A stretch of 64,000 nt of DNA from Eledone cirrhosa. Taxonomy: Eukaryota. Location: assembly GCA_964016885.1 (NCBI GenBank), contig OZ024749.1:16926001-16990000 (forward strand). Direction: 5' to 3'. Position numbers and translations under genes: made by a program. Within the stretch, counting starts at the first letter, position 1; the number at the start of each line of letters is the position of its first letter. The notes below the pieces were generated by a model. The model saw only the letters and a list, made by a program, of their open reading frames with translations, was not told the DNA's origin and did no database searches. Shown piece by piece: positions 44,816 through 47,227 of this stretch.

Positions 44816-46251
44816 TTGTTACATAATAAGGTTATGTTTCCGAGGCAATCCAAATTGGATCGACAAGGGAACAGATGAATTGCGTGTTCTTGGGTTTTTC
44901 ATCCGCTCCCTTGTGGTGAGTACCAATTCACTCCCACCGGCCTGCGCAAGCGCATGTCCGAAGGAAGTTGACCATTCTCCACCGCAGACTTCAACGAAAT
45001 TTGCTTAGTCAGTTCACCCTGTCATCCAAAACAATGGCCCACCAATGCCTGTACCATATTTTACTGCTACTCATAACGGCTGTGGGAGTCAGCCGAGAGC
45101 CAGAGGGGATGGGAGAGTGTTAGTTTTTACAGGTCATAATACTACCCCTCACTAAGCGTTGACGGTACGACTTCACCTGATTAGGGAAAATAAACTTATT
45201 CTAGGTATCATGGTTTTACGTTGGAAGTTAAGAGTGAGAGTTGGAAATAAAAATTAAATATCAGAAATTATAAATTAAACAATTAAGAAATTAACAATTA
45301 GAAATTAAAGAATTAAAAAAAAGAATTAAAAAATTATTTTCAGGTGATAATTCGGATTGAGGTGAGTAAAAATATAGATTGAAGTGAGTAAATAATATGG
45401 AGAGAGGTGGTTAAGTAATATGTTCTGAGAGGGATTCTAGTGTCACAGTTACTCTATCCACATATTGAACGACGGTGTCGTACATTATAACTACAGGGCT
45501 CCAGGCATTAGTGAATCTGGTACACAGTCCTAATTTCCATCACATGGAACAAAATCAAAGAAAAACAGACATAAAGTACACAGAAGAAAAGAACAGAACC
45601 AACAGTGAATAAATGCAAAACACAGAGTACATATATGATCCATATGATTGTCCATCTGTCCATGTATAGATTGAATTGAGGGGGCCTCTGTTCAAGTGCG
45701 ATTTGGTGCAGGAAAATAGGGGTTTATCCTATTATTTGTTTCCGCGTATTTATCCTGCCGAAAGTTATTATTATGTCCGTCCAGTGTAAGGGTTTCCATC
45801 CCCATGGTAGAGGGAATTTCCGGGGTAGCTTATGGTTGGTTCCTCTCTTCTCCACCATATCGGTTACATCATAAAGCGCTCACCTATTGGAGCTAAATTA
45901 TTAGGGTAAATATTGATGCAATTCAATTCAAGCACTCAACGTACTTTTCCACATAGGAGTGACGGAGTAAATATCGAATAAGGAAAAGCGAAGTAGTTTC
46001 AGATATTCAAGTCCTTTAATAATAATGCTGTGATATATATATAATAGTTACAGGGTTCCAATTGGAGTTTTAACTCTAATTTTCATATATATTTCTGCTC
46101 CCTCACAAGTCGAGCTTATTAAGTTGTGTGTGTTGGACTGTTATTTCTATTCAATACGCGCTTACCACGTTTGACTAGCGGCGCACGAGGTGACAAATTT
46201 CATCTTTCTGTGTGAACGTTGGCAAATAGTGTTTGTTGCATTTAATCAGAT

Positions 46252-46331
46252 TCTCTCGCTGATGATGCCCAAGATTATCTGTTACAAACGCACTCAGGGC
46301 GAAACAGATTAGGGATAATCTGCCCGAGAGA
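46252..46331 (+). ncRNA. Type I hammerhead ribozyme (cleavage triplet mutated to GCC)
   Basis: tctctcg-CTGATGA-tgccc...gggc-GAAA-cagatta ggga taatctg-CC-cgagaga. Confidence 0.82.
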
Positions 46332-46719
46332 TATAATGGTTATTGAGGCGGTTTGTATAATAATATATTTTTATTTTATCATTCTGTCTGCTTCTTGGTT
46401 AAATATTTCAAACAAATGTGGTTTTTCAACCCTTGTAATTTTAGACACACGGTTTACTGTGTTTCTTACTATATATTATTAATCGGCTCAGTATTTTATA
46501 CTTGGAGCTTAATAGTTACAGGGTTCCAATTGGAGTTTTAACTCTAATTTTCATATATATTTCTGCTCCCTCACAAGTCGAGCTTATTAAGTTGTGTGTG
46601 TTGGACTGTTATTTCTATTCAATACGCGCTTACCACGTTTGACTAGCGGCGCACGAGGTGACAAATTTCATCTTTCTGTGTGAACGTTAGCAAATAGTGT
46701 TTGTTGCATTTAATCAGAT

Positions 46720-46799
46720 TCTCTCGCTGATGATGCCCAAGATTATCTGTTACAAACACACTCAGGGGGAAACAGATTAGGGATAATCTGTCCGAGAGA
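46720..46799 (+). ncRNA. Type I hammerhead ribozyme (GUC site; stem II base gggg)
   Basis: tctctcg-CTGATGA-tgccc...gggg-GAAA-cagatta ggga taatctg-TC-cgagaga. Confidence 0.85.
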
Positions 46800-47227
46800 T
46801 ATAATGGTTATTGAGGCGGTTTGTATAATAATATATTTTTATTTTATCATTCTGTCTGCTTCTTGGTTAAATATTTCAAACAAATGTGGTTTTTCAACCC
46901 TTGTAATTTTAGACACACGGTTTACTGTGTTTCTTACTATATATTATTAATCGGCTCCGTATTTTATACTTGGAGCTTAATAGTTACGGGGTTCCAATTG
47001 GAGTTTTAACTCTAATTTTCATATATATATATATATATATATATATATATATGTATATATATATGTGTGTGTATATATATATATATATATATATATATAT
47101 ATATATATATATATATATTATATATATATATATATATATATATATATATATATGTATATATATGTATATGTATATATATGTATATATATATGTATATGTA
47201 TATATATATATGTATATGTATATATAT

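Follow-up and report, generated by a model that had tools for sequence, protein, structure and literature searches.

A decayed two-unit retrozyme in Eledone cirrhosa and a conserved upstream segment predicted to pair with loop II of its hammerhead

Background

How does a retrozyme RNA that carries its own hammerhead ribozyme escape being cut by it? In invertebrates, non-LTR (metazoan) retrozymes with their type I hammerheads reach copy numbers in the thousands (Cervera and de la Pena 2020, PMC7229834), and how their RNA circles avoid self-cleavage is left open in that paper. The question is raised here by a tandem repeat in a 64,000-nt stretch of the Eledone cirrhosa genome (assembly GCA_964016885.1, contig OZ024749.1, positions 16,926,001 to 16,990,000; hereafter the window, to which all coordinates refer). 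The original prediction held that loop II of this hammerhead is complementary to both strands of stem III, and that it could dismantle the active ribozyme as a built-in off switch. We examined the array, the family to which it belongs, its manner of insertion, and the predicted folds of its RNA, and we find that a different partner for loop II fits the family better.

Results

A tandem array with one lesioned hammerhead per unit

TRF reports a tandem array at 46042 to 47028 (period 468, 2.1 copies, 98% match), which bears out the proposed 468-bp 2.1-mer with one hammerhead per unit, although the array ends at 47028 and not at 47020 as first given. The array and its parts are as follows.

46042 to 46509, plus strand: retrozyme unit 1, 468 bp, 35.7% GC
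46510 to 46977, plus strand: retrozyme unit 2
46978 to 47028, plus strand: third unit, partial (unit positions 1 to 51); it stops at one of two fixed 3' ends known in the family, and (TA)n follows
47021 to 47448, no strand: (TA)n microsatellite at the 3' junction, the likely target
46466 to 46482, plus strand: TA-rich motif inside the unit, at about unit positions 430 to 441, the family's other fixed 3' end
46252 to 46331, plus strand: type I hammerhead 1, with an extra base (46266) between A9 and G10.1, U16.1 changed to C at 46323, and a predicted cut after 46324
46720 to 46799, plus strand: type I hammerhead 2, with C11.1 changed to G at 46768 and a predicted cut after 46792

Between the two full units, 5 of 468 sites differ; both have a GC content of 35-36% (thus below 45%) and contain no open reading frame longer than 78 aa from stop to stop. 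They are therefore short, non-coding tandem units with one type I hammerhead apiece, as expected of a non-LTR retrozyme. In hammerhead 1, stem I (46252-46258 with 46325-46331, 7 bp) leads into the core (46259-46265 plus the extra base), stem II (46267-46270 with 46297-46300, 4 bp) is closed by a 26-nt loop II, and stem III (46305-46311 with 46316-46322) is counted as 8 bp; the corresponding positions in unit 2 lie 468 nt downstream. Rfam at its gathering threshold returned no hammerhead, its sole match being a tRNA; the long loop II and the extra core base are atypical.

For comparison across the genome, we first set aside 20 segmental duplicates and then extracted 153 hammerhead stretches; once 16 truncated stretches had been dropped, the remaining 137 collapse to 89 distinct rows. 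The type I layout, with a conserved core, three stems and an open stem I, is retained across these rows: 607/616, 345/356 and 695/712 cells are paired for stems I, II and III, respectively. Both lesions named in the original prediction (GUC to GCC in unit 1, C to G in stem II of unit 2) are present, and each of them breaks a conserved core pair of the hammerhead. Elsewhere in the family these pairs are canonical, with A-U as the first pair of stem III in 86 of the 89 distinct copies and G-C as the first pair of stem II in the same number; the consensus is canonical, as predicted. The locus is a decayed two-unit copy of a widespread mobile family with a predicted hammerhead ribozyme.

Several other motifs in the window resemble hammerheads. 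The 5' flank of the array (46004-46040) matches at 97% the stem III/stem I end of one such motif on the minus strand (44719-44810), and judging from this match the retrozyme seems to have inserted in the TA palindrome of that motif. Further examples lie at 21994, 23891, 54497, 27545, 53602, 14355 and 1038 on the minus strand and at 29037, 48180, 53769 and 14481 on the plus strand. Several repeat families are represented among them; some of the motifs are minimal and have a palindromic stem III, others have a long hairpin as stem II, and Rfam detected none of them in the window at the gathering threshold. A weak Rfam tRNA match at 54899-54956 falls within a tRNA-like repeat, likely a SINE, of which the window holds several copies.

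A dispersed family with several subfamilies

A DNA search of the 3.0-Gb genome gave at least 134 matches, counted from the 40 candidates that were scored out of 1522. Three pattern searches found 299, 442 and 621 places, compared to 0, 0 and 1 in the controls. The array represents a single insertion of a family that is dispersed over at least 621 places with the ribozyme, where membership is defined by DNA and pattern searches that strongly diverged copies lie beyond. Identity between subfamilies falls to about 70%, and in three contig runs of one sample only the family and its variants were seen. Under the rule by which Li, Clavereau and Pollet (2026, 10.64898/2026.07.22.740005) call a retrozyme active, namely two consecutive units with complete hammerheads, the family qualifies through the three intact units of one locus (L005), and the array studied here does not because both of its ribozymes are lesioned. 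A scan of 1 of 64 parts for distant relatives suited to covariation analysis took in 119 metagenome loci, none of which closed a type I hammerhead or was similar to the unit.

At the extra core position, U or A stands in 137/137 aligned rows (duplicates included, and with an anchor pattern that itself demanded U or A), and the widest pattern search lists single cases of G and C. U and A are also the two bases tolerated at the extra position in the CChMVd hammerhead (PMC3705267).

Three groups of loci stand out within the family. In a numerous subfamily (L091-L120), the extra core base is A, the units measure 451 or 472 bp, and the loop II helix described below is stronger; one of its arrays, of at least 5 units, repeats a pattern of lesions that spans two units. 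An older subfamily (L259, L260, L264-L267) is a core variant in which position 7 is G and stem II is preceded by two additional A. About 20 near-identical loci with common flanks, many of them near contig starts (L069-L090), represent one segmental duplication that contains an old copy.

Insertion anatomy resembles that of Penelope-like elements

The ends of the copies are informative about how the family moves. Of 74 distinct 3' ends, 58 fall at two sites: unit positions 48-52 account for 24 and positions 430-441 for 34. TA repeats follow 48 of the 58. Inverted 5' pieces are present, and both orientations occur in 36 of 71 loci patterns. The 5' ends are truncated and scattered. A clustering of these ends at the ribozyme cut site is not supported: only 5/86 lie near it, within positions 278-290, and 0/30 start there in a genome-order sample.

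Truncated 5' ends, partial tandems, an inverted 5' copy and microsatellite targets are the described anatomy of Penelope-like elements (PLEs; 10.1101/2021.04.23.441226), and PLE hammerheads characteristically have an additional base inserted between positions 9 and 10.1 of the core (PMC4209133). The family has both this anatomy and the extra base. Its 5' truncation, inverted 5' pieces and two fixed 3' ends in (TA)n therefore identify it as a non-LTR retrozyme, a class of element that is already known and has been proposed to consist of non-autonomous PLE derivatives (10.64898/2026.07.22.740005; PMC7229834). In an anole PLE, there are two internal start sites for the reverse transcriptase (RT) and uncleaved RNA is the main template; the PLE hammerhead is inactive without protein, and the uncut RNA is what is used as template (PMC11167929). 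By analogy, the two fixed 3' ends fit two internal RT start sites on uncleaved RNA, and the family is likely copied by the enzyme of a PLE.

In the one PLE family that we examined, no autonomous element with a terminal repeat homologous to the unit was found. That family is an abundant, young PLE-like element (L135, 3512-5866) with a 785-aa open frame that has no Pfam match and in which RT-like and C-terminal endonuclease-like motifs can be recognized by eye. We rejected it as the autonomous partner, since its roughly 350-bp terminal repeat is unrelated to the unit and a scan of it gave no hammerhead. At one junction (L022/L137, near 4907-4921 of L137), a PLE-like copy and a retrozyme copy are joined 5' to 5' through 14 filler bases; as evidence for a partnership this is only suggestive.

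Loop II is improbable as an invader of stem III

The two matches on which the proposed switch was built are present, and they exceed chance in this copy. Helix a pairs 46272-46279 with 46314-46321 (8 bp) and helix b pairs 46277-46283 with 46303-46309 (7 bp). Among 5000 shuffles of loop II, the duplex energy of helix a was reached by 32 and that of helix b by 121, and both runs occurred together in none (0/5000). The helices share 3 nt of loop II, so they cannot both form fully at once. In predicted folds of natural copies, the probability of helix a ranges from 6e-9 to 6e-4 in eight local folds and is 7e-6 and 1e-3 in two circles; for helix b the values are 5e-5 to 2e-2 and 2e-3 and 8e-2. Invasion of stem III is therefore improbable in linear and circular forms alike (0.08 at most, for helix b in one circle, and mostly far lower), and the folds do not support an off switch of this design.

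Conservation of the loop II complementarity divides between the two helices. Helix b is intact, each of its pairs being kept in 87-89 of 89 rows, but its partners are bases of the catalytic core and stem III that are conserved anyway. Helix a depends on loop III:

46312 to 46315, plus strand: loop III in the form of the derived subfamily; sister copies have the reverse complement here, and the derived form supplies 2 of the 8 pairs of helix a

Of the 23 rows of a subfamily-balanced alignment, 10 and 7 retain these two pairs, as do 69 and 65 of 88 in a larger sample that is dominated by the window's own subfamily. Loop III varies widely, and the window's form, which judging from the sequences likely arose by micro-inversion, marks one derived branch (100/99). 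The tree was midpoint-rooted and built from 52 of 99 copies with the loop III columns included; three "long" labels within the derived clade are single-base variants of the derived loop III. In four other copies helix a was reached by 104, 131 and 553 of 2000 shuffles, which is not significant, and in the fourth by 6 of 2000. Neither helix shows covariation across copies; helix b never varies and is uninformative either way.

An upstream segment is complementary to loop II

RNAalifold on 24 copies returned a hairpin between loop II and a 19-nt segment upstream of the ribozyme (UP), and not the invasion of stem III. A downstream segment (DOWN) is a second, weaker partner of UP.

46229 to 46247, plus strand: UP, unit 1; a 19-nt segment in which 16 positions are complementary to loop II, with weak complementarity to DOWN as well
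46273 to 46291, plus strand: loop II segment pairing with UP, unit 1
46339 to 46351, plus strand: DOWN, unit 1; a second possible partner of UP, with many G.U pairs, whose pairing would lengthen stem I in the active fold
46697 to 46715, plus strand: UP, unit 2
46741 to 46759, plus strand: loop II segment, unit 2
46807 to 46819, plus strand: DOWN, unit 2

The UP:loop II duplex (16/19 positions, -18.4 kcal/mol) was equaled by 4 of 5000 shuffles, and UP is the best partner of loop II among all 40-nt windows of unit 2. In four other subfamily copies, the duplex was reached by 1, 0, 0 and 24 of 2000 shuffles. UP lies 3-4 nt outside stem I, and the loop II segment follows stem II after 2-3 nt.

Every one of the 16 positions that can pair does so in 82 to 89 of the 89 rows. 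Columns with a shared variant number 3/19 in UP and 3/19 in the loop II segment, compared to 54/80 in the 5' flank, 4/4 in the linker and 4/4 in loop III, and the boundary of conservation is sharp and falls exactly at the outer end of the helix. The shared changes that do occur mostly keep pairing, as A-U and G.U swaps or as U.U to G.U (23/89), and in the A-insertion subfamily the helix is stronger (-18.3 versus -14.7 kcal/mol); one subfamily has lost 2 further pairs. Double compensatory changes in the helix were absent among the 89 distinct copies, and the pair-shuffle control was not exceeded. Two mismatch positions in UP are likewise invariant. UP and DOWN can form 11 mostly weak pairs that would extend stem I, where the conservation of DOWN is inflated because the search pattern partly forces it.

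Other parts of the unit are conserved as well. A short motif at 46648-46661, about 65 nt upstream of the core, is kept across subfamilies and is a possible promoter or protein site. Two additional pairings were discounted. A 7-bp match of loop II to the tail downstream, present in the window's subfamily, was rejected, since 284/5000 shuffles reached it and two of its pairs are broken in 9 and 16 of 89 copies. An upstream anti-core helix from suboptimal folds, which by eye is weakened in older subfamilies, was set aside.

Predicted folding favors the hairpin over the hammerhead

Among 38 intact copies, chosen with a pattern that itself fixes loop II, nested folding favors the UP:loop II hairpin over stem II in 34. 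Shuffling UP raises the probability of stem II in 38-40 of 40 shuffles for four of eight test copies and in 24-29 of 40 for the other four. When growing prefixes of the transcript are folded, the outer helix reaches a probability of about 0.98 once loop II has been transcribed. Five of six unit-length circles favor the hairpin, while the circle of L008 favors the hammerhead. For the cleaved linear monomer, a hammerhead-like fold is predicted at 0.58 and 0.29 versus 0.07 and 0.03 for the hairpin. In the window's subfamily, the hairpin and the active fold lie within about 1 kcal/mol of each other, and ViennaRNA ignores pseudoknots and tertiary contacts and therefore understates the active fold. 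The general idea of a built-in off fold thus survives as a prediction with UP as the partner of loop II, while stem III as the partner does not.

Discussion

We give a probability of roughly 0.5 to the following reading: a dispersed, non-coding hammerhead family, likely copied by the enzyme of a PLE, has left a mutated insertion at this locus, and its loop II is predicted to pair with UP and to keep the ribozyme mostly off. The size of the family, its insertion anatomy, the hammerhead layout and the conserved complementarity at 16 of 19 positions are observed, whereas the mechanism set out next is inferred. UP and loop II, being transcribed first, would form a hairpin whose loop contains the catalytic core. 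The link of 5-8 nt from the UP:loop II helix to the 3' strand of stem II would be too short to let stem II coexist with the full helix. The 3' strand of stem I, once made, could pair inside the hairpin loop, and DOWN could displace loop II from UP and switch some molecules on. Only part of the RNA would then be cut, because stem I can nucleate in the loop and DOWN can displace loop II, and this partial cleavage would leave uncut multimers or circles. The reverse transcriptase of a PLE would copy these from two internal start sites into (TA)n targets.

A more specific version, which we offer tentatively and consider somewhat doubtful, is a strand-swap switch in which the 19-nt segment would lock loop II in the off state and lengthen stem I in the on state, with stem I nucleating in the hairpin loop as the toehold.

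Part of the same complementarity could instead activate the ribozyme. Either the inner 5-8 bp or the outer 8 bp of UP:loop II may form a pseudoknot that leaves stems I-III intact and replaces the usual contact between loops I and II. About 40% of hammerheads are predicted to have a pseudoknot between stems I and II, and breaking it lowers activity (PMC3088659); the short distances of UP from stem I and of the loop II segment from stem II would suit such an arrangement, and the observed conservation fits it equally well. However, the tested cases in that work have 4-6 bp, whereas here 16 pairs over 19 nt are kept together; on geometric grounds about 19 stacked pairs should be out of reach of a 5-nt linker, and UP has a second partner, DOWN, that is compatible with its conservation. 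We regard this explanation as unlikely, though it is the main rival.

Still less probable, in our assessment, is that a fold-back (template-switch) duplication left the complementarity behind as a relic, with UP and loop II kept for RT or protein binding or as a DNA-level promoter and with no role in regulating cleavage. The absence of double compensatory changes agrees with a relic, as does the readiness with which the family makes inversions (loop III, the inverted 5' pieces), and the invariance of both UP mismatch positions indicates a constraint at the level of sequence. Against it stand the sharp conservation boundary at the outer end of the helix, the variants that mostly keep pairing, and the numerous A-insertion subfamily with its stronger helix. 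Invasion of stem III by loop II, despite its above-chance matches in this copy and the intact helix b, is very improbable, as it must open an 8-bp stem III with a probability of about 1 in prefix folds, and one of its helices needs a loop III found only in the derived subfamily.

UP is a concrete candidate for the element by which retrozyme circles escape self-cleavage, and the insertion anatomy ties the family to PLE-type integration. If the strand-swap switch is true, self-pairing would explain how circles and multimers of metazoan retrozymes evade their own ribozyme, and the family would be a small natural model of delayed ribozyme activation.

Comparison with known systems

The family shares with the retrozymes of PMC7229834 its non-coding tandem units, a GC content below 45% and a type I hammerhead in each unit, and it differs in unit length (468 bp versus about 170-400 nt). 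The tandem hammerhead units of Li et al. (10.64898/2026.07.22.740005; 51-972 bp there) are similar, and this kind of genome does not seem to be among those studied there. Retrozymes co-occur with PLEs in that study, whereas we found no PLE with a related terminal repeat in the one family examined. No long loop II with a conserved 16-bp upstream complement was found in the literature searched, to which the review PMC6765202 added nothing on this point, and the supplements of PMC7229834 and PMC4209133 may show the family.

The hammerheads in the terminal repeats (pLTRs) of PLEs likewise have an extra base between core positions 9 and 10.1 (PMC4209133, 10.1101/2021.04.23.441226, PMC11167929). PLEs also share the 5' truncation, partial tandems, inverted 5' copy and microsatellite targets (10.1101/2021.04.23.441226), and their two RT start sites give rise to an optional tail, which is about 81 nt here versus 30-40 in PLEs (PMC11167929). 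Unlike the PLE hammerhead, whose stem III is minimal and palindromic (PMC4209133), the unit here has a stable 8-bp stem III and no ORF.

With respect to the control of cleavage, pseudoknotted hammerheads (PMC3088659) resemble the family in the Watson-Crick pairing of loop II with sequence adjoining stem I, although the tested examples are short and activating. In PMC7229834, a mussel family of 350-390 bp is described as lacking the usual contacts between loops 1 and 2, and most metazoan circles are predicted to have a free hammerhead, the block having to come from something other than self-pairing, in contrast to the conserved block predicted here. A parallel exists with the circles of plant LTR retrozymes and Avsunviroidae, in which the hammerhead is blocked by a complement in the same RNA, as predicted here (PMC7229834). 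Those are type III hammerheads or viroid RNAs, while the family has a type I hammerhead, and its predicted blocker is a 19-nt segment directly upstream of the ribozyme that would pair with loop II and not with the core.
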